Assembly (NCBI GenBank): GCA_965552055.1
Contig: CBEVQO010000005.1
Span: 13,373 to 77,372, forward strand
DNA length: 64,000 bases
Origin: an uncultured bacterium
GTDB taxonomy: Bacteria; Hydrothermota; UBA3073; NMUJ01; CBEVQO01
Direction: 5' to 3'
The position numbers were made by a program, and so were the translations under genes. Shown here piece by piece: positions 11,177-62,056 of this stretch. The notes under the pieces were generated by a model, which was given only the letters and a program-made list of their open reading frames with translations, was not told the DNA's origin and did not search any database. How positions within the stretch are numbered: position 1 is the stretch's first letter; the number at the start of each line of letters is the position of its first letter.

Positions 11177-11188
11177 CGCATTTCTCTA

Positions 11189-11215: not shown

Positions 11216-11217
11216 CA

Positions 11218-12041: not shown

Positions 12042-12043
12042 AA

Positions 12044-15679: not shown

Positions 15680-15846
15680 TTTTAGCCCCGCCTCCGCTGT
15701 CCCCACCTTCCCGATTAAGTCAGCCCACTCCTTACCCTTCTTTAAACGCAATCAGAAGATAAAGCGTAAACAACCCGAATAACCCACATCCCCGTAATGG
15801 GCTGACATATCAACCCTTATGTAATGTGCTCGGCTGCGCCGAGCAA
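15680..15846 (-). repeat. Intergenic GC/G-tract-rich repeat, copy 3 (divergent middle, perfect 7-bp palindrome)
   Basis: tttttagccccgcctccgctgtccccacc ... caacccttatgtaatgtgctcggctgcgccgagca. Shares 5' and 3' blocks with copies 1, 2 and 4; the middle carries inverted repeat GTCAGCCCA/TGGGCTGAC. Abuts the Lon-like start codon directly (GGGGCTAAAAATG). Confidence 0.45.
15828..15844 (-). terminator. Hairpin GCTCGGC-tgc-GCCGAGC just downstream of the membrane-protein gene stop
   Basis: Perfect 7-bp stem, 3-nt loop, 4 nt after the stop at 15849. Only a weak U-rich tail follows, so terminator function is uncertain; it is also the conserved 3' block of the repeat. Confidence 0.3.
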
Positions 15847-19261: not shown

Positions 19262-20818
<1,557 letters not shown>

Positions 20819-20851
20819 TTTCTCTCCGGGCAGCACACTTTATTTTTTTAT

Positions 20852-20923
<72 letters not shown>

Positions 20924-20924
20924 T

Positions 20925-20996
20925 GGGGATGTAGCTCAGTGGGAGAGCGCCTGCTTTGCAAGCAGGAGGTCAGGGGTTCGAATCCCCTCATCTCCA
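20925..20996 (+). tRNA. tRNA-Ala (anticodon TGC)
   Basis: Acceptor GGGGAUG/CAUCUCC with G3:U70, anticodon loop UUUGCAA, T-loop GGTTCGAAT. Separated from tRNA-Ile by 1 nt. CCA not encoded. Confidence 0.9.
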
Positions 20997-21040
20997 TGGG
21001 AAGCGATTTAGTTCTTTGACAATCAAGGCAGATGAGCATC

Positions 21041-24047
<3,007 letters not shown>

Positions 24048-24087
24048 GATGCTCATCTGCCTACTTTGTAATTAACCTGTTTTTAAC

Positions 24088-30122: not shown

Positions 30123-30820
30123 GAAAGAGATAAGAGAATACATTTGGGATTTATTGTATAAGAAAGGGGTATGGGATTTTCCTCCGCCTTATGGTCGCAT
30201 TCCGAATTTTAAAAACGCAAAGAAATGTGCGGATTTAATTAGAAAAATGGAAATATGGAAAAATGCAAAAGTTTTAAAGATAAATCCTGACAGTCCACAA
30301 TACTGGGTTAGATATTATTGCTTATGTGATAGGAAGATTTTAGTAATGCCGACTCCCCGTCTCAGGGAAGGTTTTTTATTGCTTGAACCACAGACTATAC
30401 CTGAAAGCGAGTACAGATATGCAGCGAAGATAAAAGGTGCGTTTATGTGGGGTAAAAAAAGTGAAACCCTGGGATTTACCCGAGATAGACCTTATTGTTG
30501 AGGGTTCAGTTGCTGTTACGCTAAAAGGTGCGCGTATAGGCAAGGGCGAGGGCTACGGCGAAATAGAATACGCTATTCTAAGACAATTTGGCAAGGTTAA
30601 AGAGGAAACACCCATTGTGACAACGATTCACAATTTACAAATAGTTGATGATTTTGAAATAGATGAATGGGATGTTCCCGTTGATTACATAGTTTTGCCA
30701 GATAAAATAATAGAAACCAGGACAAAAATAAAGAGACCTGAAGGAATTTTATGGGATAAATTGAAAAAAGAGAAACTAGAAGAAATACCTTTGTTGCGTG
30801 AGATAAGGAAATTAAAGTAA
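30112..30820 (+). CDS. 5-formyltetrahydrofolate cyclo-ligase-like family protein, interrupted by a frameshift in an A7 run
   Basis: Two overlapping ORFs (30112..30501, 30437..30820) in different frames. The second carries GARIGKGEGYGEIEY and DEWDVPVDYIVLPDKII, resembling the 5-FCL G-rich and C-terminal blocks. Removing one A from the run at 30454-30460 fuses them into a single ~235-aa protein. Confidence 0.45.
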
Positions 30821-40768: not shown

Positions 40769-40798
40769 GATTTAATTCAGAAAGAGAAAGGGAGTGTT

Positions 40799-43141: not shown

Positions 43142-43172
43142 TAAAAATTGATAAAAATTTTTAATTTTTAGC

Positions 43173-43199
43173 TTGACAAAGTCAAAATTTGATTAAAAT
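43173..43199 (+). promoter_or_regulatory. sigma70-like promoter (TTGACA-N15-TAAAAT) for the giant surface-protein gene
   Basis: agcTTGACAaagtcaaaatttgatTAAAAT, then SD AGGAGG at 43206-43211 and ATG at 43217. Confidence 0.5.
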
Positions 43200-43216
43200 A
43201 GATAAAGGAGGTTGTT

Positions 43217-46200
43217 ATGAGGTGGTTAATTTTTATGTTTTTAACTGCAAATCTGTGGGGGGCTGAATACTGGTGGAGGATTGAGGTCGTTGATTCTGGG
43301 GTTCAGCGTGGTCAATATACAAGTGTTGTTCTTGATGATAGTGGTAGACCCTGGATTTCTTATTATGATGCCAATAATGGGTGGTTGATGTGTGCGCACT
43401 GGACAGGGACTGCATGGGATATTGATACGGTTGATGATAGTGGCAATGTTGGTATGTATTCGAATATTGCTCTTGATAAAGCAGGTTATCCTCATATCGT
43501 TTACTTTGATGATGGGAATACAAGGTTAAAGCATGCGTGGTGGACTGGTGCTTTTTGGAAAACAGAGACCGTGAATGACCCTAACTCAAATGATTATGGA
43601 TACTGGTGCGATATTGCTATAGATTCTTTAAATCGCATCTGGGTATCGTACTATGATGCTGATAACAAAAGGCTTATGTGTGCACGCAAAGTAGGAGCTG
43701 TGTGGGATACTATTTATATCGTAGTTGAAGCATTTGGACCTCCGGTCGGGGAATACTCATCAATTTGTATTGATACATCTAATAATCCCCATATATCCTA
43801 TTATCATCAGATTAATGGGTTATCTCATGCATGGTGGGATGGTTCAAAATGGCAGGCTCAGCAGGTTGATTTTGCAGGCGGTTATTACACAAGCATAATT
43901 GCAAGCGAATGTGATACACTGCATATATCTTATTACAATCCTTCTTCGCGGGATTTAAAATATGCGAAAGGTTATTATTCTTCGGGTAGCTGGGGATGGA
44001 CGACGCAGGTAGTTGATACACAGGGAGATGTTGGCAAATGGACGAGCATAGCTGTCTGTGGAAATTCACCTCATATATCCTATTATGATGCTACAAATTT
44101 ATGTCTCAAATATGCACATTTTGAGAATGGTAGCTGGGAGATAGAAGTTGTTGATTCGCCGAAAGTCGGTGAATACACATCAATTGCACTTGATACAAAT
44201 GGCTTACCCTGTATATCCTATTATGACGGAGGTAGTGAATGGCTTAAATTTGCAAGATTGCTTATAAGACCAGAGGTTGATTCAACTTCACCTCTTCATA
44301 ATGAAGTTAATGTATCGCGTGCAACTCAGATAAATGTCTGGTTCTCAAAGGATATTGAATCTGCAACAATAAATAGTGCGAGTTTTAAAGTAATTGGTTC
44401 ACAATCGGGTGAAAGGAAGGGCACGATAACTTACGATTCTAATGAACGCAAAGCAACTTTTACATTGAATGCAGGTGAAACTTTCTATACCGGTGAGAAG
44501 GTGACAGTAATTTTAACAGATTCTATTAAGTCAGTGGATGGTGCACCACTTGTGCCTTATGTGTTTGAATTTACGATAAAGGCAGCCGAAGGGATTGCAG
44601 AGTTTAGTAATGAGGTAAGGTATAGTGTATTGGGTACGCCTGTTGATATAGAGGTTTGTGACCTTGACCTTGATGGTGACCCAGACATTGTTACGCTTTC
44701 ACAGGATACGATAATGATATGGCGTAATGATGTTGATAGTCTGGTACCTGTGGATACTATTCCCTCGCCTTCTTCACAGTACTGCATTGCGATATTAGAC
44801 CTTGATTTGGATGGTTTACCTGATATTGTGGTTGATTCAACTCCATCGAGTGCTCCTTATAGTATAAAGTTTTACAAAAATCAAGGTGGATTGAATTTCG
44901 CCTGGGGTTTTCGTTGTCAAACTGCTTATGGTGTAACAGATATGTTTGTGTCTGACTTTGATGGAGATGGCGACTTTGATATTGCTGCACTGGAATTAAC
45001 TCAGGTTGAGATTCTTTTAAATGAAGGATTTTTTAATTTTACATCGAGTGATACGATTGACCTTACATTTTCGCACAATAAATTATATGGTGCTGATTAT
45101 AATAATGATGGGTTGATTGACCTTGCTGTTACTGCCGCAGCGGGCACTCCCGGTTATGATGTTCTTGCAAATGAAGGTGAAGGCAAATTTAAGCACATTG
45201 GAACAATAACTTTAAGTCAGGGTGTTAAGGATATTATTGCATCTGATTTCGACAATGATTACAATGCGGATAATGCTTTGACGGGCGATGATACACTTAT
45301 TATTTCAGAAGGCAATGGTGATTTTAGTTTTGCACCGGAAGATGATTATGTTGCTACTGGTTCAAATTTTCTTACTTCCGGTGATTTTGATGCAGATGGT
45401 GATATAGACCTTGCGGTTAGTGGGAATGTTACAGGTGGTGATACTTTATTTATATTTTTGAATGATAATGCTAGTTTTGATTCTGTTCACAAATTTTCTG
45501 CAACTGCGATAGAAAGAATTGTGAGTGCAGATTTTAACCTTGATAGCACAATTGATATTGCATCTATTCATTCTGGTGGAATATTATCAATATTTTACAA
45601 TACGCCCGATACATTTCCACCTCCGCCTCCTGAAAGTTTAACTGCAAATGGTGGTTCTCCCTCTCCATGGGATTCCAGTGCTCGATTTGTAATTGACTGG
45701 ATAAATCCTAATGACCCATCGGGGATACTTTTTGCCAATTATAAGATAGGTTCGAGACCTGTGAGTGACTGGGATACAACAGGTCATATGTCTGCACCGT
45801 ATACTCATCCCAAAGATACGATTTACTGGAAAGGGGAAGGGATAGATACATTGTGGGTGTGGCTTGTTGATGGTAACCTTAACACCTCGAAAGATTCTGT
45901 TTCATTTGTGCTTTTAAGAAGGGATACAACACCTCCTCCTGAGCCACAAAAGATTTCTCCATCTGATGGAATATGGGTTGATAGTGCAAGGATAAAATTT
46001 ATGTGGCATTCTGTTGTTGATTCTCTATCAGGGACAATGAGTTATGGGATAGTGCTTGAATATGATGATGTAATAGGTCCTCCTTATATTAGAACAGCGG
46101 GCGATTTGAGTGGCACAACTTACTTTTATACATGTCCTGAGACTGCTGTTTACTGGAGAGTATTTGCAAAGGATTCGGCAACAAACAGGAGTCCGCAATC

Positions 46201-49200
46201 ATTCTGGTGTGTAAAAATAGACACAACTCCTCCAAATAAATTTTATGTTATTTCTCCCGATGGTGTATGGTTGAGGAAACCTCCTTATACATTTATCTGG
46301 CATAGTGCAAAAGACCACTGGTCAGGTGTTGAAAGTTATAAATTGAGAGTGTGGAGAGAAGGTTTTGCTGCTAGCAATTGGTCCGGTATAACTGATACCT
46401 CTTACATTGTGTTTGGTTTGCCTGGTTTTGCCGAAACTACATACTGGTGGTGTGTTATAGCGTATGATTCTGCTGGAAATTATGTGTATAGTGATACAGG
46501 GATTTTCTGGACAGATACTACAATTTTGCCGCCTTCTAATCTCACGATAAATGGTAAAAATCCGAACGACTGGACCAATGATAGTGTATTTACATTGAAC
46601 TGGACAAATCCTTCTGATTATTCCGGTATCGTTAGAGCATTATATAAGATTGGCAATAGACCTTCTTCTGATTATGATACAACTGGTTCTCTCACAGGAA
46701 TTCCTCCTGTAAGTATTATCTGGCGGGATGAAGGTGTAGAAACATTATGGCTGTGGCTCGAAGATAAGGCAGGTAATGTTGATTACACAAAAAATGCATT
46801 TGCAATAATAAGAAGGGATATAACTCCGCCTCAATCTTTTACTCAGATTTCACCTGTAAATAATTTCTGGCTAAATACCATTAATCCTCGCCTTATATGG
46901 CACAGCACTATGGATACTTTGTCGGGCTTGGCTTATTATACGATAAATGTTGATACAGTTCAAACATTTTCAACGAAAATAATTTGTGATACTGTTTCGG
47001 ATACCATTTACAATGCAAATCTATTTGAAGACGCGTTTTACTGGTATGTTGAGGCATGGGATTCTGCTGGTAATGTATGTTCTACTTTTGTGTGGAATTT
47101 CAAAATAGATACAACCCATCCTCCCAAACCTGTTTTAATATCTCCTCCTGATGGCTCATGGAACGGCAAATATGCTCATTTTGTATGGCATAAAGTTGAA
47201 GATTACTGGTCTGGTCTAGCTGCTTATCGCTTAAACATTGATACGAATGCTTTGATGCCAAATCCTCTGACATTTTCACTTACAGATACAGAGACAACAA
47301 TTGTGCTTACTCATGAAGGCAAAACTTATTACTGGATGGTGGAAGCTGAAGATTCGGCATTTAATATATCGCAAAGTTTGGTATGGACTTTCAAACTTGA
47401 CACAACAGTTCTTGCACCGATTAATTTAATTGCAAATGATAGTTCTCCGTCACCGTGGCAAAGGAGTTCTATGTTTGTTATTAACTGGCAAAATCCATCT
47501 GATTCCGCTGGAATAAAGTTTGCATTATACAAACTTGGCACAGGACCCAGTAATAACTGGGATACCACAGGTACGATGCATTTACCACCCGATACGATTT
47601 ACTGGCAGGGCGAGGGCAAAGAAACTTTATGGGTATGGCTTTGCGATAGTGCAGGCAATGTTAATTACCATAATCGCTCTTTTGTGTTGTTAAGAAGAGA
47701 TACAACTCCTCCTTTTGCATTTTCAAAAATAAGACCCCAGGATAATGCGTGGATAAGGGTTGTTAAGCCTTCTCTTATCTGGCATAGCACTCAAGATTCT
47801 CTATCGGGTCTGAGGATTTATCGTGTTGCTGTAGATAAAGATATGACTCCTCCTTTTATGATTGATTTTGTTTTGCGAGGTACTCTATATGTTACACCCC
47901 ATTTACCTGAGACGATACTTTACTGGGCAGTCGTAGCAGTTGATTCTGCAGGTAACTTTAAAGAAGCTGATGCGGATACAAAAGTATGGTGGAAGATGAA
48001 AATAGATACAACTCCTCCTGATACAGTCCATCCAGTTTATCCTGTATCTAATCAATGGACGAGAGGTGGATTTATGTGGCGTAGTGCTAAAGATTACTGG
48101 TCAGGGATTAGATTTTATCATTTTGTGATAGATACAGTTTATCCATTCACTCCCAGTCCCATAAAGGATACAGTTTGCAGGGATACCGTGATATTTATCA
48201 AAGGACTTTCTGAGCGGAATTATTACTGGAAAGTTGTAGCATTAGATTCTGCTTTTAATGGAGGTGCTGGTGTTGTTCATCAATGTCGAGTTGATACCAC
48301 GCCACCGGATAGCGTTAAATTAATCTCTCCTGAGAACCTTTCTTACACGAATGATATACATTCTGTATTTACATGGGATACAGGCTATGATGCGCGTTCA
48401 GGTGTTATGGGCTATATTTTCTGGGATTCTTCACTTGCATATGGTGAAAAAATTGATACTCTTATCTTAGGCGTATTTAACACATCTTATAAGCCTTTAA
48501 AAGGTTTAAAGGAGGGCTGGCATTGCTGGGCAGTTGTAGCAATGGATTCAGCCTACAATGTTAGTGATGGTCATTATCCTTATTCTGTGCATTTGTTATG
48601 TGTGGATACTACTCCTCCTGAGTCCGCAATTGCAACTTCGCCTCTTTATGTTGATAGCCTTGTATTTGTTGTGCAATGGAGTAAAGGTAAAGATACTTTA
48701 TCGGGCATCACAGATACTTATAAATTGAGATATTCTACAGATTTAGTTTCATGGTATGATACGGCTGTTACGGGTACCGCATTTATTTTCAAAGGAGAAG
48801 ACCAGACAAAATATTACTTTGAGGTGCTTTCTCGGGATTATGCTGGCAATTTTGAGCGCATCACAGGAGTGCCTGAATGCTCAACCTATGTTGATACTAC
48901 ACCGCCTCAGCAGGTTCAGTTAATCTCACCTGAAGGCTGGATTAAAGAATTATCACCTGTTTTAATATGGCACAAAGCAAATGACTTTACAGGGATAGCA
49001 GAATATTATGTGCAGCTAAGTAAAGATATGGGTTTCGATACCATTATTTTTTCGGATACCGTTGCAGATACATTTGCGGTGGTAGGTTTAAATTTAATGG
49101 AAAATGTTAAGTACTACTGGCGAGTTAGGGCAAAAGACAACGCAGGCAATGTAAACATGTGGTCAGGTTATAATATGTTTAAAGTGGATACATCATCGCC

Positions 49201-51430
49201 GCAAATACCTGAACTTGTAAGTCCTCTAAATGATACTCCAGTAACAACGGTTGATGATACTTTGACACTTATATGGAGGGCATCTTACGATGAGCTTTCT
49301 GGTATTTATGCTTATCAGGTGCAGATAAGCGAAGTTCCTGATTTCTCATCGCTTATACTTGATACTATTTTGTATCATCCTGATACTATATTGAGGTATC
49401 CAAGAGAATTAAATGAAATTAAGCATTATTGGCGAGTATTTGCGATAGATAGTGTCTGGAATGTTAGCGATGGACATAAAGGGACATTTATGGTTGACAA
49501 TACCGCGCCTGTACTTGTTCATAAGTATCCTGACCTGAATGACACGGTTGACCCGCGTATAAAAATAGAAATTGCATTTTCTGAAAAAGTAGACCCCAAA
49601 ACGGTTGATACTCTCTCCTTCTGTTTATATATGGAAGCAGAAAAAGTGAGAGGAAATGTTTATCAACATCCAGCTATAGAGACATTGTTTTACTTTGAGC
49701 CTAAAGAAAATCTTGAACCCAACACCAAATATCTTGTTGTTGTTTCAACAAAAGATAAAAAAGTTAAAGATATTGCAGGTAATAAGATGTCGATGGTGAG
49801 CTGGAGTTTTTACACTGCAGGCAGTGCTGATAATATGCCTCCGGATGTTAAGGAAATAAAAACTTATCCCGAAGTTACTTATGGTGCGCCTTATGTAGTT
49901 ATAAAAGCATTGCTAAAGGATGATATTTCGCGCATTAAATATGCTGAATATTTCGTTGATTCAGTGGGTTCACCTGGTACGGGCGATGCAATGATGCCAC
50001 TCGATGGTGCGTTTGATAGCAAAGAAGAGTGGGTGATAGATACTCTATTCACTAAAGATTATAGTGGCACTTTGAGGATATTTATTCAGGGTAAGGATGA
50101 ATGGGACAACTGGAGTGATGCAGTTAAATCGAAGATAATAGTATGTCCTCCCGATACAATACCTCCGCTTTTTGATATAATGGTTAATGGAAGCCGAGAA
50201 GATACACTTCAGGTGACAGATACTATTGTAGTGAGAACTAAATCTTCGGAAATTATAAATCCCGATTATCCCGTAGTATGCACTTTGAAATACAATTCCA
50301 CAGTTATTGCACAAACTATGAAGAGAGAAGATAGTGTTACCTATACTGTGCAATTTGTAATTACACATCCTCCTTTGACAGAATATGATGTTAAAGTGCT
50401 TGGTTACGATTATGGATGGCATTGGGATACTTTGAAGGATAGCATTGTAAGTATGCCAAATCTCGGTGTCAACGAAAAGCATTTTATACTTTATGACTTT
50501 GAATCACCCAGTATAATCTCATTTACATTAAAACCAGAGACCCTTGAAATAACGGATAAACTAAATGTGGAGATTACAATAAAAGATAATTATGAGCTTA
50601 AAGAAGTTAGATTTTATTTTGACTCCGACACCGTACCTGTGGAAACGATTTCATTGAGTGGCAGGGATACTTCTTTAACAACGAACATACCTGTTAGTGG
50701 TTTGACTCCTGCCTCTTCCCATATATTGCGTGCCCTTGCATCTGATATATGTGATAATATTAGCCCTGAAGTTTCTGCTGGCTTTTATATCAGAGAACTC
50801 GATGTCATACCACCTGTTTTGATGCTTCAGAGACCGGATACATTTTATCTTGGAGATTCCGTTTTAATAGTAGCAATCGCGAGCGAGAAATTGTCAAGAG
50901 ATTCAATTCCGGTTTGTTTGATAAAAGGCTTAAGAGGTAATGATACTTTGATAGATACTTTAAAGATGACTTTTGTGGATGATTCTACCTGTCAGACGAA
51001 ATACAGGGTTCAGGGTTTAAATCTGGGAGTTGCTTACATTGATGTATATGCTTATGATGAAGCAGGCAACCTTGGACTCGTTGAAGATTCGGTTTACATC
51101 AGTAAGAGAGGAAGATTATTTGACCCAAGGAGAGATGTGTTCCCGTTTCCTAATCCTGTTAGAAAATCCAACGAGGTGTATTTCCATATTTATGTGAATC
51201 AAAATGCCTATGTTGATATAAGAATTTATACGATAGAAGGTCGTCTTGTTAAGAGATTAGAAAGAATATTTGTAGAAGGAGGTCGTCCGAAATACAGCTG
51301 GGAGGCAAATGTAATTAAGGTTGACATTTCTAAATTAAAAACAGGATTATATTATGCCAAGATTACGATAAGGAGTCTGGATGGGAAAGAAAAACAGAGT
51401 TGCACCAAGAGATTTGTGGTGATAAAGTAA
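43217..51430 (+). CDS. Giant (2737 aa) modular secreted surface protein: N-terminal propeller-like repeats, FG-GAP/VCBS-like repeats, at least ten Ig/FN3-like modules, T9SS C-terminal sorting domain
   Basis: Signal peptide; about seven ~45-aa repeats (G.YTSIALD..G.PHISYYD....LKYA); DxDxDG repeats (DLDLDGDPDIV, DFDGDGDFDIA, DFDADGDIDLA); ~100-aa modules separated by (K/R)(I/V)DTTPP linkers, each with YW.V.A.D.AGN; tail FPFPNPV...IRIYTIEGRLV...KRFVVIK. Confidence 0.75.
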   Translation: MRWLIFMFLTANLWGAEYWWRIEVVDSGVQRGQYTSVVLDDSGRPWISYYDANNGWLMCAHWTGTAWDIDTVDDSGNVGMYSNIALDKAGYPHIVYFDDGNTRLKHAWWTGAFWKTETVNDPNSNDYGYWCDIAIDSLNRIWVSYYDADNKRLMCARKVGAVWDTIYIVVEAFGPPVGEYSSICIDTSNNPHISYYHQINGLSHAWWDGSKWQAQQVDFAGGYYTSIIASECDTLHISYYNPSSRDLKYAKGYYSSGSWGWTTQVVDTQGDVGKWTSIAVCGNSPHISYYDATNLCLKYAHFENGSWEIEVVDSPKVGEYTSIALDTNGLPCISYYDGGSEWLKFARLLIRPEVDSTSPLHNEVNVSRATQINVWFSKDIESATINSASFKVIGSQSGERKGTITYDSNERKATFTLNAGETFYTGEKVTVILTDSIKSVDGAPLVPYVFEFTIKAAEGIAEFSNEVRYSVLGTPVDIEVCDLDLDGDPDIVTLSQDTIMIWRNDVDSLVPVDTIPSPSSQYCIAILDLDLDGLPDIVVDSTPSSAPYSIKFYKNQGGLNFAWGFRCQTAYGVTDMFVSDFDGDGDFDIAALELTQVEILLNEGFFNFTSSDTIDLTFSHNKLYGADYNNDGLIDLAVTAAAGTPGYDVLANEGEGKFKHIGTITLSQGVKDIIASDFDNDYNADNALTGDDTLIISEGNGDFSFAPEDDYVATGSNFLTSGDFDADGDIDLAVSGNVTGGDTLFIFLNDNASFDSVHKFSATAIERIVSADFNLDSTIDIASIHSGGILSIFYNTPDTFPPPPPESLTANGGSPSPWDSSARFVIDWINPNDPSGILFANYKIGSRPVSDWDTTGHMSAPYTHPKDTIYWKGEGIDTLWVWLVDGNLNTSKDSVSFVLLRRDTTPPPEPQKISPSDGIWVDSARIKFMWHSVVDSLSGTMSYGIVLEYDDVIGPPYIRTAGDLSGTTYFYTCPETAVYWRVFAKDSATNRSPQSFWCVKIDTTPPNKFYVISPDGVWLRKPPYTFIWHSAKDHWSGVESYKLRVWREGFAASNWSGITDTSYIVFGLPGFAETTYWWCVIAYDSAGNYVYSDTGIFWTDTTILPPSNLTINGKNPNDWTNDSVFTLNWTNPSDYSGIVRALYKIGNRPSSDYDTTGSLTGIPPVSIIWRDEGVETLWLWLEDKAGNVDYTKNAFAIIRRDITPPQSFTQISPVNNFWLNTINPRLIWHSTMDTLSGLAYYTINVDTVQTFSTKIICDTVSDTIYNANLFEDAFYWYVEAWDSAGNVCSTFVWNFKIDTTHPPKPVLISPPDGSWNGKYAHFVWHKVEDYWSGLAAYRLNIDTNALMPNPLTFSLTDTETTIVLTHEGKTYYWMVEAEDSAFNISQSLVWTFKLDTTVLAPINLIANDSSPSPWQRSSMFVINWQNPSDSAGIKFALYKLGTGPSNNWDTTGTMHLPPDTIYWQGEGKETLWVWLCDSAGNVNYHNRSFVLLRRDTTPPFAFSKIRPQDNAWIRVVKPSLIWHSTQDSLSGLRIYRVAVDKDMTPPFMIDFVLRGTLYVTPHLPETILYWAVVAVDSAGNFKEADADTKVWWKMKIDTTPPDTVHPVYPVSNQWTRGGFMWRSAKDYWSGIRFYHFVIDTVYPFTPSPIKDTVCRDTVIFIKGLSERNYYWKVVALDSAFNGGAGVVHQCRVDTTPPDSVKLISPENLSYTNDIHSVFTWDTGYDARSGVMGYIFWDSSLAYGEKIDTLILGVFNTSYKPLKGLKEGWHCWAVVAMDSAYNVSDGHYPYSVHLLCVDTTPPESAIATSPLYVDSLVFVVQWSKGKDTLSGITDTYKLRYSTDLVSWYDTAVTGTAFIFKGEDQTKYYFEVLSRDYAGNFERITGVPECSTYVDTTPPQQVQLISPEGWIKELSPVLIWHKANDFTGIAEYYVQLSKDMGFDTIIFSDTVADTFAVVGLNLMENVKYYWRVRAKDNAGNVNMWSGYNMFKVDTSSPQIPELVSPLNDTPVTTVDDTLTLIWRASYDELSGIYAYQVQISEVPDFSSLILDTILYHPDTILRYPRELNEIKHYWRVFAIDSVWNVSDGHKGTFMVDNTAPVLVHKYPDLNDTVDPRIKIEIAFSEKVDPKTVDTLSFCLYMEAEKVRGNVYQHPAIETLFYFEPKENLEPNTKYLVVVSTKDKKVKDIAGNKMSMVSWSFYTAGSADNMPPDVKEIKTYPEVTYGAPYVVIKALLKDDISRIKYAEYFVDSVGSPGTGDAMMPLDGAFDSKEEWVIDTLFTKDYSGTLRIFIQGKDEWDNWSDAVKSKIIVCPPDTIPPLFDIMVNGSREDTLQVTDTIVVRTKSSEIINPDYPVVCTLKYNSTVIAQTMKREDSVTYTVQFVITHPPLTEYDVKVLGYDYGWHWDTLKDSIVSMPNLGVNEKHFILYDFESPSIISFTLKPETLEITDKLNVEITIKDNYELKEVRFYFDSDTVPVETISLSGRDTSLTTNIPVSGLTPASSHILRALASDICDNISPEVSAGFYIRELDVIPPVLMLQRPDTFYLGDSVLIVAIASEKLSRDSIPVCLIKGLRGNDTLIDTLKMTFVDDSTCQTKYRVQGLNLGVAYIDVYAYDEAGNLGLVEDSVYISKRGRLFDPRRDVFPFPNPVRKSNEVYFHIYVNQNAYVDIRIYTIEGRLVKRLERIFVEGGRPKYSWEANVIKVDISKLKTGLYYAKITIRSLDGKEKQSCTKRFVVIK

Positions 51431-52428
51431 TGTTGAAGCAATTAGAGTACTGGATAAGAAAGGTGATAAGAGAAACAAAAGACCTTGAATTTGACACTCA
51501 CCTGATCGGTGTAAGGACTAAAAAAGAGGATTATCCGAAAGCCATTTTTAATAGGACTTTAAGTGAAGCTGTAAAAAGGAAATATGGTTCAAGGTTTGAC
51601 CCCAAGAATCCCGATGTTCAGATAATATGCGATATTGATAAAGATGAGATAGAATTTTACATAAAGCCTGTCTTCCTTTATGGTAGATACAGAAAACTTG
51701 TGCGTGGTATTCCTCAAACTCGCTGGGATTGTAAGGAATGCGGAGGAAAAGGATGTGAAAAATGTAATTACACAGGCAAAATGTATCCTGAATCTGTAGA
51801 GGAGATAATAGGTGATAAGGTTAAAGAATATTTTAAAGCAGAAGAAATAATTTTGCATGGTTGTGGCAGAGAAGATGTAGATGCGAGGATGCTTGGAAAT
51901 GGCAGACCATTTGTGCTCGAAATAAGAAAACCATGGAAAAGAAGAGTTGATTTGAACAAACTTACAGAAGAAATAAATGATAGTGCAAAAGGGAAAATTG
52001 AAGTTTTATTTTTGCGTTATACTGAGAGGCATGCCGTTAGATTGATAAAAGCGGTTCGTCCAAAGAAAGTTTATCTTGTAAATGTGAAGTTCGAGGAGCG
52101 GGTTGACAAAAGTAAGCTTCTGATGGCACTGGATGAATTAAAAGGTAAGGAGATAGTGCAAAGGACACCGATAAGGGTTCTGCATCGCAGAGCCAATTTA
52201 AAAAGGATAAGAAAAGTTTATGATTGTAAATTGATAGAGTTTAACGATTCTACTGCAAAGATAGAGTTTACATGTGAAAGCGGTATGTATGTTAAAGAGA
52301 TGATTTCAGGTGACTTTGGCAGGACGAAGCCCAGTTTAAGCGAAATACTCGGCGTGCAATGTGAGGTGCAGGAGCTCGATGTAATAGGTGTTGAGAAGAT
52401 TCCGTTAGAAGAATTTGGGTTCCTCTAA
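51430..52428 (+). CDS. tRNA pseudouridine synthase Pus10-like (archaeal/eukaryotic type)
   Basis: Zinc ribbon CKECGGKGCEKCNYTG and block HGCGREDVDARMLGNGRPF resembling the Pus10 catalytic-Asp region. ORF track starts at 51400; the ATG at 51430 (MLKQLEYW) overlaps the giant gene stop as TAATG. Confidence 0.55.
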   Translation: MLKQLEYWIRKVIRETKDLEFDTHLIGVRTKKEDYPKAIFNRTLSEAVKRKYGSRFDPKNPDVQIICDIDKDEIEFYIKPVFLYGRYRKLVRGIPQTRWDCKECGGKGCEKCNYTGKMYPESVEEIIGDKVKEYFKAEEIILHGCGREDVDARMLGNGRPFVLEIRKPWKRRVDLNKLTEEINDSAKGKIEVLFLRYTERHAVRLIKAVRPKKVYLVNVKFEERVDKSKLLMALDELKGKEIVQRTPIRVLHRRANLKRIRKVYDCKLIEFNDSTAKIEFTCESGMYVKEMISGDFGRTKPSLSEILGVQCEVQELDVIGVEKIPLEEFGFL

Positions 52429-55914: not shown

Positions 55915-56889
55915 TTGTCAAGTAGAAATTTCTTTATTGCCATTTTAATATTCCGAATAAATTTAATGGTGAAAAGATTTTTATTCATGATAATTATTTT
56001 GCTAACCTGTTCGCCACCCAGGGACAACCCCTTTGACCCCAATTCTCCCATTTTTAAATTTGGTTTCTTAAAGGGAAGTGTTAAAAATCATTATCATATT
56101 CCTGTTCCTTATCCCGAAATCTATATTTTAGGTTCACAGAAAGGTTGTGGAGATTCTACGGGTAACTTCTTTTTTAAACTCGAAGAGGATTCCTATAAAG
56201 TCATTTTTTCAAAAAGCGGATATACATCGTCAACTTTATCTGTATGGATTGCATCTAAAGATACTCTTGAGGTCTTTCCCGTTATTGCAGGGATACCTTA
56301 TTTTGAAGAAGTCGGTGTTGCTTCTGAATTTTACAAAGGTACAGCGATTCAACCTGATAGATGTTATCTCACTATAAGAGCGGAAGTCAAAGACCCCGAT
56401 GGATTACAGGATATAGATAGTGTGAAGTGCCTTATACCTGCTGATAATCCATATTATGTAACTCTTTTTCCTTCTGCAGGATACTATGAGGCTACAATAA
56501 AGGGCACGAGTATTGTGACGATAGAAAACTGGGTTGGCAGGACTTTTCGCGCTTATGCAGTAGATAAATGGGGGATTAGGGGTTTTTCTCGTGATTTTAC
56601 ACTTGTAAGAGTTATAAAGGAGACAGCGAATCCTTTATATCCCCAAAATGGTGATTCGGTGGAATCTCCCGTGACCTTTGTGTGGAGAAAGCCGGATGTG
56701 AATTTTAGCATTCATTATCAGCTGATATTATACGAAGAAAACGGTGCAGAGAGAATTTTCGATACAGAAGATACCACAATTACGCTTTCACTTAATCCTT
56801 CACGCTATAGCTATTACATAAGAGCAATAGACGAATTCGGTAATTTCTCACAATCCACTTACACTGTCTTTTATGTTATCTCAAAATGA
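55915..56889 (+). CDS. Hypothetical lipoprotein with Ig-like beta-sandwich regions
   Basis: Probable start at internal Met MVKRFLFMIIILLTCSPP (lipobox LLTC); beta-rich sequence. Confidence 0.45.
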   Translation: MSSRNFFIAILIFRINLMVKRFLFMIIILLTCSPPRDNPFDPNSPIFKFGFLKGSVKNHYHIPVPYPEIYILGSQKGCGDSTGNFFFKLEEDSYKVIFSKSGYTSSTLSVWIASKDTLEVFPVIAGIPYFEEVGVASEFYKGTAIQPDRCYLTIRAEVKDPDGLQDIDSVKCLIPADNPYYVTLFPSAGYYEATIKGTSIVTIENWVGRTFRAYAVDKWGIRGFSRDFTLVRVIKETANPLYPQNGDSVESPVTFVWRKPDVNFSIHYQLILYEENGAERIFDTEDTTITLSLNPSRYSYYIRAIDEFGNFSQSTYTVFYVISK

Positions 56890-58438
56890 TGAGCTTTTCT
56901 ACTCTATTATCCTGAGTTCTTACAAAGTAAATTCCCTCTTTAAGATTTGAAATACGAATAATCCCTGACTCATTTTTCAAAGAGCATATTTTTCTGCCTG
57001 TTATGTCGAATATTTCAATATTGCCTTTATAATTTATTTTTATGTAATCTTTTGCGGGATTTGGTATTAATTTTAATTTTGAAATCTTATTTTTATTTTC
57101 ATAGGTTGCTACTACTCCTTCGTTTATAACAACAGGTATCGATTCGTCGAAAGTTGCTGCGAAAACAGTATCACTGATAAAATCAGGTGTATTCCCGTAA
57201 ATTTTGTATAAGCCCGGAGTTAAACCGGTGAGATAAAAATTACCATAGGGGTCAGAGAGCGTAGTTTTCACACTTTTAGAGTTTCTGGCGATTATAATGC
57301 CTATCTTCTGTATCTTACAATAAGAAAGTTTTCCGTAAAGTGTAAAATACCCTGTTTTGCTTCTATTAAGTTTAAAGTTAATGTTCGAAGCCGATGATGA
57401 GAATTTAATCGCTTCCTGAAAATTAAAAGTGGATGGATAAAGTACACCTGTATGATTTTTTGCGAAGCAATAAAGATAAACTTCACCATGTAATCCGCTT
57501 AATCTGTAAAATCCATCACGATTTGTGATCGCACAATAGAACTTTGAGTTTTCATCAAATGCAAATACAAAAGCAGGATAAATTGGTGCACTGTCTTCTA
57601 CATAGCCTTCGATTGAAAAGCCTGTATTAACACTATCAAAAGTAAGTATAAGTGATGTATCGTTTTTGAGAAAAATGCTATCTATCGATGGTAGATAACC
57701 ATTTGCTACCGCTAATATCTTGTAGTTACCCTCAGGTAATAATAGAGTGTCCGTTATATCAACTTTTTTAATGGTGCAATATGTTTTTGATGCTATAAAA
57801 ACATAAGCTGAGCAATTTGTTGTTAGAGTTAAATTCAATAAGTTTGAAGGTTGCCTATATATTTCGATGTAGTAGTTTTCATCGGGTGCGAGATGTAAGT
57901 TTTCTATTTTGTTGATTATAAGGCCTTTGTAAAATGCTTCGAGTGTATAATGTGAGATTTTGCTTGTGTCCGGTGGTATATTATCGATGATGAACTCACC
58001 ATTTTCATCCGTTGATGCTGTTCCTACCGTATAAAGGTCGTTAAATTTTAATATTAAAGTTGCATCTTTTAAAGGTGTGGAATCCGTGTCCATTACTTTT
58101 CCGCTTATAGTAGCCGGATGCCAGTCGGGATTAGGCGATAGATTAAAATTTACATCTGTTATTTCACCTGTGATGATTATTTCAACGGCATCCTCAGGGA
58201 AATCCGCATTATACCACCACTGGGGGAAATATCCTCCTTTTTCTGCGTAAACATAAACGGTTTCCCCTGCTCTTAGACCGCTGAATTTATATCTCCCATC
58301 AGGAAAAGTATATGTCCATTTGTAAGGATATAAAGGTGCATCGAAAGCATTTTTTAATAGCAGTACGATAGAAAAATTCAAAGGTTCTCCATTACTTTCT
58401 ACTCTGCCAGTAAGTAATATTCCGATTAAAAAAATCAT
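56876..58438 (-). CDS. Secreted protein with carboxypeptidase-regulatory-like domains and T9SS C-terminal sorting domain
   Basis: Signal peptide; repeated CarboxypepD_reg-like modules (ISGKVMDTDSTPLKDATLIL...TDENGEFIID; GYVEDSAPIYPAFVFAFDENS...TNRDGFYRLSGL); tail LIPNPAKDYIKINYKGNIEIFDITGRKI...GIYFVRTQDNRVEKLIILR. Confidence 0.55.
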   Translation of the reverse strand: MIFLIGILLTGRVESNGEPLNFSIVLLLKNAFDAPLYPYKWTYTFPDGRYKFSGLRAGETVYVYAEKGGYFPQWWYNADFPEDAVEIIITGEITDVNFNLSPNPDWHPATISGKVMDTDSTPLKDATLILKFNDLYTVGTASTDENGEFIIDNIPPDTSKISHYTLEAFYKGLIINKIENLHLAPDENYYIEIYRQPSNLLNLTLTTNCSAYVFIASKTYCTIKKVDITDTLLLPEGNYKILAVANGYLPSIDSIFLKNDTSLILTFDSVNTGFSIEGYVEDSAPIYPAFVFAFDENSKFYCAITNRDGFYRLSGLHGEVYLYCFAKNHTGVLYPSTFNFQEAIKFSSSASNINFKLNRSKTGYFTLYGKLSYCKIQKIGIIIARNSKSVKTTLSDPYGNFYLTGLTPGLYKIYGNTPDFISDTVFAATFDESIPVVINEGVVATYENKNKISKLKLIPNPAKDYIKINYKGNIEIFDITGRKICSLKNESGIIRISNLKEGIYFVRTQDNRVEKLIILR

Positions 58439-58516
58439 CTCATTTGTTTTTTAGCAAATTTCATATCTACAGAATTTTGTAAAATTTAACCAATTTCATG
58501 CTTTATAAAGATAAAG

Positions 58517-58537
58517 TTAATGCAAATTTTGCATTAA
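58517..58537. promoter_or_regulatory. Perfect 10-bp inverted repeat TTAATGCAAA-t-TTTGCATTAA (operator or AT-rich terminator candidate)
   Basis: Located 15 nt downstream of the stop of gene 58553..59188 and ~80 nt upstream of the start of gene 56876..58438. A U-rich tract follows on the minus strand. Confidence 0.3.
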
Positions 58538-58552
58538 AATTGCAATTTTTGC

Positions 58553-59188
58553 TTACTTTAACAAAAAAATAAGATTTATAATGGGAAAGCAAAATGCAAG
58601 TGTAAAAGAGATATTACGCACATTATACCATAATTTGTATTTTTTATAAAATCTTTCAATTTCGCTTTCTTCCTTTGCACTTAAATATTTAAGATGAGCT
58701 TCTTCGTATTCTTTTTGCGAAAAATAAGAAAATCCAATCAAAAATAATTGTGTTCCCAGCAAAATAAATCCCTTTTTTCTTTTCCCGTTTTGTATGTCGT
58801 AAACACCCGGAATTATATGAATTGGTTTCAATACTTTTTTTCTCACAAAAACGGTTTCGATTTTTATTTTTTCGATAACAGGAATTTTAAATTCTTCTTT
58901 TGCTTTTTTAAACACTTTTATTACTTTTGGGGGAGTTACTGTGGGGTCGAGTTCGAGTTCAGGATTCAGAATAAGAGCCTCTCCGAACTCCAGCATTGCA
59001 AGATTTTCTTTGGATAAAGCAATATAAGAATATGCGAGGATTAAATGTAAATCTATTTTTTCACTTTTTTTCAACTTTTCTTCTTTCAAAATTTTTTTGG
59101 CAAGTTCTATTGTTGTTAAAAAATCGCCTTCTTCAAAATGTTTTTTTACTTCACTTAAATCGACCAAAATCAAAAAAATGAAAATCAT
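58553..59188 (-). CDS. Hypothetical membrane-anchored protein (TPR-like helical N-region, two C-terminal TM helices)
   Basis: 211-aa ORF, 4-nt overlap with the upstream Ser/Thr kinase gene; hydrophobic segments LLGTQLFLIGFSYF and FTLAFCFPIINLIFLL. Confidence 0.4.
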   Translation of the reverse strand: MIFIFLILVDLSEVKKHFEEGDFLTTIELAKKILKEEKLKKSEKIDLHLILAYSYIALSKENLAMLEFGEALILNPELELDPTVTPPKVIKVFKKAKEEFKIPVIEKIKIETVFVRKKVLKPIHIIPGVYDIQNGKRKKGFILLGTQLFLIGFSYFSQKEYEEAHLKYLSAKEESEIERFYKKYKLWYNVRNISFTLAFCFPIINLIFLLK

Positions 59189-60576
59189 TTTAGTTTGACT
59201 TTTATTCTTACGGTATCTCCTGCTTTAAAATTTATCTCCTTTTCCCACGGTTCAAAGTATGGATTTTGTAATCTTACTTTATGTTTTCCCGGTTTTATCT
59301 TAATAGCTTCTGCAATGGGTGTTTGGGTTATATATTCACCGTCTATGAAAACTTCTGCCCATGGTTTCACATTTAAAAATAGATAAGAAACTTCATTAAA
59401 TAAATTTACTGCAATTTTTTTATTTCCATTTATCTCAACTATTTTTGCAATTTCAGGAAAAGCCGGGTTCTTGAATTTAAGAGTATATTTTCCTTCTTTT
59501 AGCCCAAGTTTACAATAATTCGTATTTTTTGCGATTAACTTTTCGTTAAGGTAAATATCGCATTTGGGCTTGCATTCCACTTCTATTTCGTAAATTTTTA
59601 TCCGCTCTCTTATGATTTCAACTTTTCTTACAGTATCAACTTTTATTATAGTTTCTTTTGTTATTTTTTCCTCTGCTATTTTTCCTTTCCCCTTCTGTTC
59701 TTTTAAAAAGAGAATTAAAAATGCGAGCAAAACCGGGATTATATAAAACCATGATAATCTTTTTACTTTTTTCTTTGGGAGTTCTACTTTTAAATCTCTC
59801 AAAACTTCATCTGCGGATTTATATCTTTTTTCTGGCTCTTTTTCTATCATTTTCAATATCACATTTGCAAAGTCTTCGGGTGTTTGTTCCTGTAATTCTT
59901 TAATTCCTTCTGGTTTTTCTGTTAATATTTTTTTTAAAATCTCTGTAAATGTTTTTCCTGAATAAGGTGGTTTTCCTGTTATCATTTCGAGTGCGCATAT
60001 TCCCAGTGAATAGATGTCGGATGATGGTGTATAATCACGCCCTTGTAGCACTTCAAAGGGCAGGTAAGCTGGAGTGCCGGGTAATGTATCTTCTGATGTT
60101 ATTCTTAAAGCTTCCTTTGAGACAGCGAGACCGAAATCGGTTAAAACAGCTCTTTCTTCTGTTAGAATTATATTTTCGGGCTTAATATCTCTATGCACTA
60201 TTCCACGCGAATGAATATAAGATAATGCAGATAAAATATCTATTAAAATTTTTCTGGCTTCATTTAAAGGAATTCTTCCACGATTTATCCTTTGCCTTAA
60301 AGTTTCACCTTTTATGTATTCGAGACAGATGAAATAAGAGTCATCCATTTTTCCGAAATCTATAACCTTGACAATAGAAGGATGATTTAATTTTGATAAA
60401 ATTCTCGCTTCTCTGTGGAATCTTTTAATCATTTCTTCATTTTTTGAGATGGAATGATGTAAAACTTTTAAAATTACTTCTCTATCAAGTGATTTCTGTT
60501 TAGCGAGGTAGCATACGGATAAACCACCTCTTGCTATTTCTTTTATTATTTCAAATCCACAGATGATATTCCCCAT
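59185..60576 (-). CDS. Hanks-type serine/threonine protein kinase with TM segment and C-terminal beta-rich domain
   Basis: ATP-site Lys (VILKVL), catalytic loop HRDIKPENIIL, DFGLA, GTPAYLPFEVL; TM segment WFYIIPVLLAFLILFL; C-terminal ~170-aa extracytoplasmic region. Confidence 0.8.
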   Translation of the reverse strand: MGNIICGFEIIKEIARGGLSVCYLAKQKSLDREVILKVLHHSISKNEEMIKRFHREARILSKLNHPSIVKVIDFGKMDDSYFICLEYIKGETLRQRINRGRIPLNEARKILIDILSALSYIHSRGIVHRDIKPENIILTEERAVLTDFGLAVSKEALRITSEDTLPGTPAYLPFEVLQGRDYTPSSDIYSLGICALEMITGKPPYSGKTFTEILKKILTEKPEGIKELQEQTPEDFANVILKMIEKEPEKRYKSADEVLRDLKVELPKKKVKRLSWFYIIPVLLAFLILFLKEQKGKGKIAEEKITKETIIKVDTVRKVEIIRERIKIYEIEVECKPKCDIYLNEKLIAKNTNYCKLGLKEGKYTLKFKNPAFPEIAKIVEINGNKKIAVNLFNEVSYLFLNVKPWAEVFIDGEYITQTPIAEAIKIKPGKHKVRLQNPYFEPWEKEINFKAGDTVRIKVKLK

Positions 60577-61997
60577 TGTTTTAATTTATGATATAAAGTG
60601 CGTACGGGAATACCGAGGCTTTCTGCTGCTTTCTTCTTATTACCACCAAATTCTTTAATCCTTTCGAGAATTACTTTTTTCTCAATTTCTTCGAGGGTTC
60701 TGGGTTTTAATTCTTTTTTCTCTTCCCATTGTATATGTTCGGGTTTTATAACTGTTCCCTGGCATAATAAAACGGCTTTTTGTATTATATTTTCAAGTTC
60801 TCTTACATTCCCGGGGTAATGCCATTCCATCAGTTTTTTGATGGCAGCATCGGATAAAACTAAATTTTCTTTTCCCCATTTTTTACCATATTTTTTAACA
60901 AAATAAGACGCCAAAGCGGGTATGTCTTCTTTTCTTTCCCTTAAAGGTGGAATTCTTATGGTTATAACATTCAGCCTGTAATAAAGGTCTTCTCTGAATC
61001 TTTTTTCTTTAATTTCTTCTTCGACATCTTTGTTAGTTGCGGATATTATTCTTACATTAACCTTTTTAATTTTTGTATCGCCCACTCTTCTTATTTCTCC
61101 AAGTTCTATTGCTCTTAGCAATTTTGCTTGAGTTTCTATTGGTATATCGCATACTTCATCCAAAAAGAGTGTTCCTTCGTGCGCTACTTCGAATAATCCT
61201 TTTTTATCTTCGTGTGCACCTGTAAAAGCTCCTTTTTTGTGTCCAAATAATTCTGATTCTATTAAAGTTTCGGGTAATCCGCCGCAATAAAGCGGTACAA
61301 ATTCTTTGTTCTTTCTCGCGCTGTTAAAATGAATTGCTCTTGCTACGAGTTCCTTTCCTGTTCCACTTTCGCCTAATATTAGCACAGGGCAGTCAACTGC
61401 TGCTGTTTTCTTGATAAGGTCAAAAATATGCTGCATCTTCTCACTTACTCCAATCAGGTCACCAAATTGGGTTATTCTTTTTAATCTTTCGTGTTCTTTT
61501 TTCAAAGAAGAATAAAGCAAAGCATTTTTAAGAGCTATCGAAACAATGTTTGTGAAAAGTTCGAGAAAGTTAAGAGTATCTTTTGTGAAAAGACCCGATT
61601 TAAGACTTGAATCAAGATAAATTATCCCTCTTAACTCTTCATCAATAAAAATCGGAGCAGATATTACAGATGAAATTGATTGGGTTAAAACGGTTTCTGA
61701 ATCTTTAAATCGTGGGTCTTCTCTTGCATTTACGGACAATATGGGTTTTCTTTCCTTTTCTACTTCCTTTATTATTTTTGTGGAAATATCTTCTGTTACA
61801 TCTTCTTTCTGTATGTTTCTTCCGATTTTGAATTCAAAAGGAGCATTTTTCTCTTCGCGTAAGAGGAAAAAACCCCTTTCAGCGCCCGTGTGTTCGAGAA
61901 GAACATCCATCACTCTGCGTAGCAATTCTTCTATGTCAAGTGTGGAGTTTAGAATCTGCGAAATCCTGTAAAGTGCTTCAAATTGATTCCGCATCAA
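60546..61997 (-). CDS. Sigma-54-dependent transcriptional activator (GAF sensor, AAA+ domain with GAFTGA, Fis-type HTH)
   Basis: Walker A GESGTGKELVARAIH, GAFTGA loop (KKGAFTGAHEDKKG), Walker B LFLDEV, arginine-finger region, C-terminal HTH GGNKKKAAESLGIPVRTLYHKLK; N-terminal GAF-like domain. Confidence 0.85.
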   Translation of the reverse strand: MMRNQFEALYRISQILNSTLDIEELLRRVMDVLLEHTGAERGFFLLREEKNAPFEFKIGRNIQKEDVTEDISTKIIKEVEKERKPILSVNAREDPRFKDSETVLTQSISSVISAPIFIDEELRGIIYLDSSLKSGLFTKDTLNFLELFTNIVSIALKNALLYSSLKKEHERLKRITQFGDLIGVSEKMQHIFDLIKKTAAVDCPVLILGESGTGKELVARAIHFNSARKNKEFVPLYCGGLPETLIESELFGHKKGAFTGAHEDKKGLFEVAHEGTLFLDEVCDIPIETQAKLLRAIELGEIRRVGDTKIKKVNVRIISATNKDVEEEIKEKRFREDLYYRLNVITIRIPPLRERKEDIPALASYFVKKYGKKWGKENLVLSDAAIKKLMEWHYPGNVRELENIIQKAVLLCQGTVIKPEHIQWEEKKELKPRTLEEIEKKVILERIKEFGGNKKKAAESLGIPVRTLYHKLKQWGISSVDLK

Positions 61998-62056
61998 TAA
62001 TTATAATGCATTTTACGAATTTGTCAATAATTTTCTACATTTATCAAATTTTATCC

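Follow-up and report, generated by a model that had tools for sequence, protein, structure and literature searches.

The question raised by this locus is whether a membrane-anchored Ser/Thr kinase controls the sigma-54 activator encoded next to it and, if so, which gene would respond. The locus lies in a 64-kb stretch of contig CBEVQO010000005.1 from an uncultured bacterium (hereafter the window, in which all coordinates of the locus are given). It consists of three minus-strand genes encoding a sigma-54 enhancer-binding protein (the activator), a Hanks-type Ser/Thr kinase and a small membrane protein that we call P3; behind them lies a gene for a cargo protein of the type IX secretion system (T9SS). 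A preliminary description of the same DNA had suggested that phosphorylation by the kinase controls sigma-54 transcription. On balance, our analysis favours a conserved envelope-to-transcription signalling module, in which the kinase would act on the GAF-containing activator, the activator on a pair of palindromes, and these on transcription of the cargo gene. The three genes and the promoter in front of them are as follows.

62000..62027, minus strand: sigma-70-type promoter TTGACA-N16-TATAAT, 12/12 consensus matches, the best of 6.4 kb scanned
60546..61994, minus strand: sigma-54 enhancer-binding protein of 482 amino acids (aa) with GAF, AAA+ and HTH_8 domains (Pfam, NCBIfam, motifs, alignment)
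59185..60576, minus strand: Hanks-type Ser/Thr kinase of 463 aa (open reading frame (ORF) listing, Pfam, motifs, internal repeat in tblastn)
58553..59188, minus strand: P3, 211 aa, TPR-like with a helical hairpin (ORF listing, family profile, AlphaFold, Foldseek)

The Pfam scores of the activator and the kinase far exceed the curated cut-offs, and the Pfam and NCBIfam matches of the activator agree with the GAF and sigma-54 enhancer-binding domains assigned to it earlier. It matched Sigma54_activat (PF00158) with 234.8 bits against a cut-off of 20.2, together with GAF (52.8 bits), AAA_lid_14 (81.4) and HTH_8 (51.4); the GAF domain covers residues ~20-158, the AAA+ domain 181-347 and the helix-turn-helix (HTH) domain 434-475. 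Walker A (GESGTGKE) is found at residue 208, and the alignment also revealed Walker B (LFLDEV). The GAFTGA loop, which a review gives as a defining feature of sigma-54-specific activators (PMC12316311), is intact at residue 255 (nucleotides (nt) 61215-61232). In the alignment it is conserved in 5 of 7 orthologues, the others reading GSFTGA (locus L005) and GAFTDA (L019). The ORF listing gives 483 aa when read from a TTG (60546-61997); because the public protein record has 482 aa, the ATG at 61994 is the likely start. Identities as NifA (TIGR01817, 405.5 against an equivalog cut-off of 528.85 over residues 4-437, with no nif genes in the window) and as NorR (NCBIfam, 350 against 476) were rejected.

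For the second gene, the call of a membrane-anchored Hanks kinase with an extracytoplasmic C-terminal domain was borne out in all its parts. The cytoplasmic kinase domain (residues 8-259) matched Pkinase (PF00069) with 184.5 bits against a cut-off of 31.7 and carries VILK at 34, HRD at 128 and DFG at 147, so that the kinase is active-looking by its motifs. A single transmembrane helix (~275-292) is followed by two PEGA-like repeats (~320-463; PEGA, 62.0 bits). The kinase was rejected as a PASTA kinase (PknB/Stk1, NF033483), with 274.6 against a cut-off of 450, a match confined to residues 8-272 and a C-terminus made of PEGA. Homology of the PEGA region with the CarboxypepD_reg domains of neighbouring proteins also found no sequence-level support (hhalign probability 4%); by their Pfam clan, the two may share a transthyretin-like fold.

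P3 itself has no Pfam match above the cut-off, and a word-index search retrieved P3 alone. Its homologues were obtained by inspecting neighbourhoods and by an exhaustive HMMER search, which gave a family of 579 representatives without functional annotation. Among 55 family members, DUF5683 was matched in 28 and TPR_2 in 21; the family would be recognised by TPR repeats at the N-terminus and, behind them, a PG-x-GQ...KG membrane hairpin resembling DUF5683. P3 comprises a short hydrophobic N-terminus, TPR-like helices (11-99) and a helical hairpin probably related to DUF5683 (137-210). The AlphaFold model (55 homologues, predicted local distance difference test 91) shows five N-terminal TPR-like helices, which a disordered linker connects to a long helical hairpin; with this model, Foldseek returned small TPR domains only, covering the TPR part (best E = 0.06). 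The family profile also matches TPR proteins, and the earlier label of a TPR-like membrane protein was thus justified. Clear signal peptides in P3 homologues from the architectures that we call types B and C suggest that the TPR domain of P3 should face the periplasm. A type VI secretion system (T6SS) lipoprotein identity (TssQ, NF038027) was rejected, as the score was 25.1 against a cut-off of 65 and no T6SS genes were present. As a side observation, P3 homologues of architectures B and C and of L005 carry a C-terminal extension (L008 3996-4820, L009 2372-3199, L005 11394-12068, L021 8035-8940). Its last residues form a strand-like motif rich in aromatics, with F at the terminus (VQVGYKLSF, LRMGYYVKF, IGFHF, LRLRF), and recall the C-termini of outer-membrane proteins; it is missing from the P3 of the window.

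As had been described, the three genes overlap on the minus strand: the ORF listing and a reading of the sequence both give 31 nt between activator and kinase (60546-60576) and 4 nt, ATGA, between kinase and P3 (59185-59188). The -10 box of the promoter stops 5 nt ahead of the activator ATG (61992-62027 region), and the operon mRNA is therefore probably leaderless. No Shine-Dalgarno sequence is visible ahead of the kinase or P3 starts. Leaderless or Shine-Dalgarno-independent initiation may be widespread in this organism, as this -10 box and the weak -12 box ahead of the cargo gene (58438-58468 region), described below, would suggest.

Conservation of the trio and exchange of its proposed outputs

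The region is 99% identical in GCA_964419125.1 and two other assemblies, copies that belong to the same species and are thus uninformative on conservation; a near-identical cluster representative was used to locate the window kinase and P3, whose exact sequences are without a record in the contig index. The view that the trio is a unit, on which the preliminary description had made its proposal depend, held in every case: activator, PEGA kinase and P3 were found together in 8/8 further distant lineages examined. These loci came from Bacteroidota metagenome-assembled genomes (L005-7 and L010), the P0020 contig and L016, L017, L018, L019 and L020. The L016 trio sits on a 3.36-Mb contig, and the L019 activator is filed by NCBI under 'Candidatus Stahlbacteria'; all are distant lineages of the Fibrobacterota-Chlorobiota-Bacteroidota (FCB) group. 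Across them, the activator is 44-58% identical over its full length including the GAF domain, the kinase 27-46% and P3 26-41%. The activator and kinase genes overlap by 31 nt in the window, 14 nt in L005, 19 nt in L018 and 16 nt in L019. The trio is retained where other genes have been inserted into the cluster, namely a Kelch-repeat gene (L005, P0020, L016), an rRNA-IVP gene (L018) or a T9SS cargo gene (L020), and cargo and lipoprotein genes are its usual neighbours. In full-text literature searches no published description of this gene cluster was found, and the accounts of WOR-3 examined contained no mention of sigma factors or of T9SS.

In L018, several copies of a ~115-nt repeat (…GGGTGACGAAGCCCGTATCGTCAAATGG…CCGTAACCGAGATTG…; 10420-11290 and 7375-7440) flank the 23S_rRNA_IVP-family gene between kinase and P3, with one copy upstream of the activator. 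The repeat has the look of a mobile or repetitive element by which the cluster was rearranged.

Scans of genomes and metagenomes with the P3 alignment gave 3 and 5 loci, too few for a census, and revealed an architecture in which the kinase and P3 are accompanied by a different effector. In the WOR-3-type loci obtained from P3 alignments (L008, L009 and L011-L015), the gene order is PEGA kinase, P3, lipoprotein and an FHA-GAF-adenylate/guanylate cyclase in L008, L011, L013 and L015, the contigs of L009 and L012 ending within the lipoprotein gene and that of L014 directly after P3. The GAF domain of this cyclase is 31-34% identical to that of the window activator. FHA is a phosphothreonine-binding domain, and an N-terminal FHA is also common among more distant activator homologues (P0202, P0213 and others). 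P0202, an FHA-GAF-sigma-54 activator 41% identical to the window activator, comes from a locus with the order PEGA kinase, P3 homologue, activator, a 224-aa protein and a CarboxypepD_reg-rich protein; in L021 and L022, kinase and P3 stand beside an FHA-GAF-sigma-54 activator of 41% identity to the window protein. What stays constant is thus the kinase, P3 and a homologous GAF domain, while the effector and the FHA domain vary, which argues that the GAF protein is the signalling output of the kinase. This swapping of outputs is the strongest argument short of biochemistry. The idea of kinase-controlled sigma-54 transcription has in this way gained comparative support, from FHA-GAF-cyclases and from FHA-GAF-sigma-54 activators beside kinase and P3; the FHA-less activator of the window would receive the signal through its GAF domain, by phosphotransfer or by docking.

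The window also contains a CHASE2-domain adenylate/guanylate cyclase gene (30812-32578, minus strand). Relatives pair kinase and P3 with a GAF-cyclase, but nothing ties this cyclase to the module.

The tandem palindrome and the cargo gene

The interval behind P3 and the genes that follow contain these features.

58521..58553, minus-strand reading: tandem palindromes AGCAAAAATTGCA-N7-TGCAAAATTTGCA, a candidate upstream activating sequence of the activator; the last base of the P3 stop codon is also the first of the pair
56876..58438, minus strand: T9SS cargo of 520 aa with CarboxypepD_reg and Por_Secre_tail (Pfam, NCBIfam), the candidate target gene
55966..56889, plus strand: CarboxypepD_reg-like lipoprotein with lipobox LLTC and then the motif PPRDNPFDPNSP, convergent with the cargo gene

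The T9SS-cargo gene had been named as one candidate target, and this choice is strengthened by a conserved tandem palindrome directly upstream of it. Operator-like palindromes occur directly after the P3 stop in L005 (TGCAAATTTTGCA-N7-AGCAAATTTTGCA) and after P3 in L019 (TGCAAAAATTGCA-N6-TGCAATTTTTGCA) and L020 (TGTAAAAATTGCA-N7-TGCAATAATTACA). The window and these three loci share a layout of 13+6/7+13, which we generalised as WGCAAAWWTTTGCW-N6-7-WGCAAAWWTTTGCW. Analogous ACGAAATATTTTCGT-type (ACGAAA-type) palindromes stand at the same position in L016 and L017. Repeats disrupt the cluster in L018, and there the pair has been relocated to the other strand, in front of a large S8-peptidase/BNR-repeat gene. 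Among the fetched loci, the exact motif TGCAAWWWTTGCA was found only at the post-P3 position and in the relocated L018 copy, and none of the activator-less loci contained it. When one mismatch was allowed, TGCAAWWWTTGCA occurred in the window at 58521-58533, at 58541-58553 and at one unrelated site, where ~1.3 would be expected by chance; 58521-58553 is the sole such pair in the window, and perfect palindromes of this class are similarly rare there.

A Fis-type HTH activator is expected to bind two dyads about two helical turns apart, as at NtrC-type sites. The two dyads here have this spacing, and on that ground we propose the palindromes as a candidate enhancer of the activator. Because the same layout recurs after P3 and almost nowhere else, it would be a candidate activator-binding site pointing at the cargo gene, the proposed target. 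The recognition helix of the HTH domain reads RTL/RWI...Y in proteins accompanied by TGCAAA palindromes and RWI/RWV...M/L in those with ACGAAA, a suggestive pattern that covers too few lineages to serve as evidence.

In a promoter scan, the best -24/-12 box within 300 nt downstream of the palindromes was compared with the share of 300-nt windows scoring as high.

58453..58468, minus strand: weak -24/-12-like box AGATAT-GAAAT-TTGCT, score 5.3, equalled or beaten by 42% of random 300-nt windows
58478-58492: alternative weak site TGGTTAAATTTTACA
L016: TGGTAT-AATGA-TTGCT, 0.9% of 300-nt windows scoring as high
L017: TGGCAT-AATAA-TGGTA, 1.9%
L005: TGGCAT-TAGAT-TTGTA, 2.6%
L019: TGGTAT-AAATC-TTGCC, 4%
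L018: weak box, 12%
L020: TGACAT-ATAAT-TTGCT, 14%

In each locus the box is found 85-141 nt downstream, counted from the first base of the palindromes. For the window box this distance is 85 nt, in agreement with the position of the boxes in relatives; its -12 element is ~15 nt before the cargo ATG and would give a near-leaderless message. We regard sigma-54 dependence of the cargo gene as likely across the family, and the cargo promoter of the window genome may share it. A scan of the cargo leaders in related loci with Rfam detected no known riboswitch or small RNA.

In L016 (11818-11925), the palindrome precedes an excellent sigma-54 box (TGGTATAATGATTGCT), beyond which come a CA-rich stretch and, ~100 nt before the next gene (for a STAS-domain protein), a stable T-tract hairpin (-22.3 kcal/mol, z = -3.2). 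The region has no Rfam match and could be a small activator-dependent RNA or an attenuator.

The sorting domain of the cargo is recognised by both PF18962 (45.1 against a cut-off of 27) and TIGR04183 (33 against 23). The protein is ~26% identical over roughly 550 aa to the products of the genes after P3 in L019 and L020, with a looser match in L005. Homologues of the lipoprotein, 23-34% identical, were found in L005, L017, L018, L019 and L020, and in relatives this is the first or last gene of the module. Type A and type B lipoproteins have only the lipobox-proximal motif in common (E = 0.002), and for this reason they are not claimed as orthologues.

Proposed mechanism and its alternatives

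In the mechanism that we favour, the PEGA repeats of the kinase and P3, probably together with the CarboxypepD_reg lipoprotein, would form the sensor, as their architecture suggests. The conserved neighbours all encode surface or secreted proteins, which suggests an envelope or surface-state cue. The cytoplasmic kinase domain would then act on the GAF domain of the co-translated activator, a step to which comparative genomics points, and this GAF domain would otherwise keep the AAA+ ATPase inactive. Relief of GAF repression would permit an AAA+ ring to assemble on the tandem palindromes through the Fis-type HTH, in keeping with their position and conservation, and sigma-54 holoenzyme could then form an open complex at the cargo promoter, leading to transcription of the CarboxypepD_reg T9SS cargo. 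The whole operon would be expressed at a basal level from its strong sigma-70 promoter, so that the system would stand poised. As a tentative generalisation, which we consider possible but less likely than not, the FCB group (WOR-3/Stahlbacteria, Bacteroidota and relatives) may possess a widespread, undescribed system in which a PEGA kinase and a TPR/DUF5683 partner replace the histidine kinase and a GAF domain gates interchangeable outputs, the activator form switching on CarboxypepD_reg T9SS surface proteins via a tandem-palindrome enhancer.

Several observations weigh against this mechanism. First, Pfam found no FHA domain in the window activator, no phospho-acceptor residue can be named in it, and no PP2C phosphatase gene lies within the cluster. 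Second, strict and 2-mismatch scans of the window for TGGCAC-N5-TTGC gave, near the cluster, only matches inside ORFs or on the wrong strand; the statement in the preliminary description that no sigma-54 promoter was found there stands, in that the interval from the palindromes to the cargo ATG contains no canonical -24/-12 box. The window box (AGATAT-N5-TTGCT) has no GG in its -24 element and, taken alone, falls short of significance, while in relatives the -12 element reads GT rather than GC in L005 and L017 and the -24 element GA rather than GG in L020; the scoring matrix is our approximation of the published consensus. Third, there is no rpoN-like ORF among the translated ORFs of the window. 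Fourth, no terminator-like hairpin was found on the minus strand from P3 to the cargo gene, and the cargo could thus also be expressed by read-through from the sigma-70 operon promoter. Finally, the cargo N-terminus (MIFLIGILLTGRVES…) lacks the charged n-region and the cleavage site present in the L019/L020 homologues, and the protein may be 5'-truncated or use an unusual signal. Because the P3-cargo interval is also short, 114 nt against 166-730 nt in L005, L019 and L020, the 5' end of the window cargo gene may have been remodelled.

The lack of an FHA domain and of an identifiable phosphosite would also suit a partner-switch resembling NifL-NifA, in which the kinase, or the kinase with P3, binds the GAF or AAA+ domain stoichiometrically and without phosphorylation, translational coupling matching the amounts; the overlap of the activator and kinase genes in four lineages is consistent with this. 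However, the kinase keeps all of its catalytic motifs, and hence catalysis is under selection, and in related architectures the GAF output comes with an FHA reader, which points to phospho-dependent signalling in the wider family. We consider binding without phosphorylation unlikely.

Much the same low probability applies to the suggestion that the genes are co-transcribed and functionally separate, the GAF domain sensing a small ligand as in NorR or FhlA while the kinase and P3 have other substrates, such as envelope or T9SS components. Small-molecule-sensing GAF activators are well known (NorR, PMC2941729), Hanks kinases usually have many substrates, and the interaction between kinase and activator is itself deduced. 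However, the linkage has been kept across very distant lineages, and one output domain has been exchanged for another (activator, FHA-cyclase, FHA-activator) with a homologous GAF domain retained beside kinase and P3, a pattern that is hard to explain without coupling.

Less probable still is that in this genome the activator does not work via sigma-54 at the adjacent gene, and instead binds the palindromes as a repressor or a sigma-70-type regulator or has its sigma-54 targets elsewhere in the genome. The lack of a canonical box and of an rpoN-like ORF in the window is in its favour, as are a TTGACA-N17-GATAAT promoter downstream of the L018 palindromes and a TATAAT overlapping the putative sigma-54 box in L020. 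These are opposed by the intact GAFTGA loop and by good -24/-12 boxes at the expected distance in L016 and L019. An anti-phage role of the kinase (PD-T4-6-like or MADS/BREX-like) was rejected as extremely improbable, since its matches to PADLOC PD-T4-6 and mad6 and to the NCBIfam MAD6 and PglW models are partial, confined to the generic catalytic domain (residues 4-272) and below the cut-offs (182.5 against 460 for MAD6, and 100 against 990), the kinase is membrane-anchored and belongs to a stable chromosomal operon conserved across phyla, and there is no defence-island context, with no other defence genes nearby and no PADLOC matches of P3, cargo or lipoprotein.

Surroundings of the locus and known systems

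Secreted surface proteins abound in the surroundings of the module. Three large T9SS cargo genes in a row (38087-51430, plus strand) encode proteins of 893 aa (transglutaminase-like), 780 aa (beta-helix) and 2737 aa (FG-GAP and Big domains). They are followed by a gene for a Pus10-type pseudouridine synthase (51400-52428, plus strand; Pus10_C 236.6 bits and an archaeal Pus10 THUMP domain), a family typical of archaea and eukaryotes and unusual in a bacterial genome. Elsewhere in the window are a type II restriction-modification pair (11340-13312, plus strand), in which an MvaI/BcnI-family restriction endonuclease precedes an N6/N4 DNA methyltransferase, and a LonB/LonC-like AAA+ protease (13319-15751, minus strand). 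An Rfam scan of the window gave rRNA and tRNA genes only: an rRNA operon (19266-24049, plus strand) contains 16S, two tRNAs and 23S, and downstream of 23S no 5S rRNA attained the gathering score of Rfam. The operon has ~60% G+C in a genome of roughly 36%, and rRNA G+C far above that of the genome is a pattern typical of thermophiles.

The usual inputs of sigma-54 activators are histidine-kinase phosphorelays or small ligands, and Hanks-kinase input is known mainly from FHA-type activators in myxobacteria. Full-text literature searches found no link of sigma-54 or a Hanks kinase to T9SS cargo expression. If the wider generalisation given above is true, sigma-54 and Ser/Thr phosphorylation would be tied to T9SS cargo expression for the first time. 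The locus also gives a first handle on T9SS cargo regulation outside a few model Bacteroidota, in organisms that are largely uncultured (WOR-3/Stahlbacteria-like). It is a compact, conserved and experimentally tractable case, in which the kinase, the membrane partner family and the activator are defined and there are candidates for the operator (33 bp) and the target gene. In addition, the FHA and cyclase variants suggest that GAF is the common receiver, a testable idea on how GAF modules are coupled to Ser/Thr phosphorylation.

With NifA, NorR and FhlA, the window activator shares an N-terminal GAF domain, an AAA+ domain with GAFTGA and a Fis-type HTH, and its best NCBIfam match is NifA. NorR keeps its AAA+ domain repressed through the GAF domain as long as no signal is present (PMC2941729). 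However, the window activator falls below every equivalog cut-off and has no nif, nor or hyc genes nearby; its partner is a Hanks kinase rather than NifL or a small-molecule pathway, and its neighbours encode secreted or surface proteins. A parallel in the proposed input is offered by the FHA-domain sigma-54 activators of Myxococcus xanthus, which are reportedly coupled to Ser/Thr kinases (as Jelsbak, Givskov and Kaiser are said to have described in PNAS in 2005). In both cases a eukaryote-like kinase, not a histidine kinase, is the proposed input, and relatives of the window activator carry FHA. The window protein differs in having GAF without FHA and a kinase encoded in the same operon, and the module adds a TPR/DUF5683-like membrane partner and CarboxypepD_reg surface proteins.

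The kinase resembles the PASTA kinases PknB/Stk1 in its cytoplasmic kinase domain, one transmembrane helix and extracellular repeats, and its best NCBIfam match is PknB_PASTA_kin; unlike them, it has PEGA, a diderm host and, as its proposed output, a transcription activator rather than cell-wall enzymes. The threonine-phosphorylation pathway of T6SS consists of PpkA/PppA/Fha1 with the TagQRST lipoprotein and periplasmic accessories. This pathway, too, combines a Hanks kinase with a periplasmic domain, envelope accessories, an FHA reader and a secretion-related output, and P3 weakly matches TssQ, whereas the window is without T6SS genes and the proposed control is transcriptional and acts on T9SS. 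Known regulators of T9SS are the PorXY two-component system with the ECF (extracytoplasmic function) sigma factor SigP; as in that case, T9SS-related genes of the FCB group would be regulated, but by entirely different components. A Hanks kinase feeding a sigma-54 activator, as proposed here, is a known kind of system; the partner family is new, and a candidate operator and a candidate target come with it.

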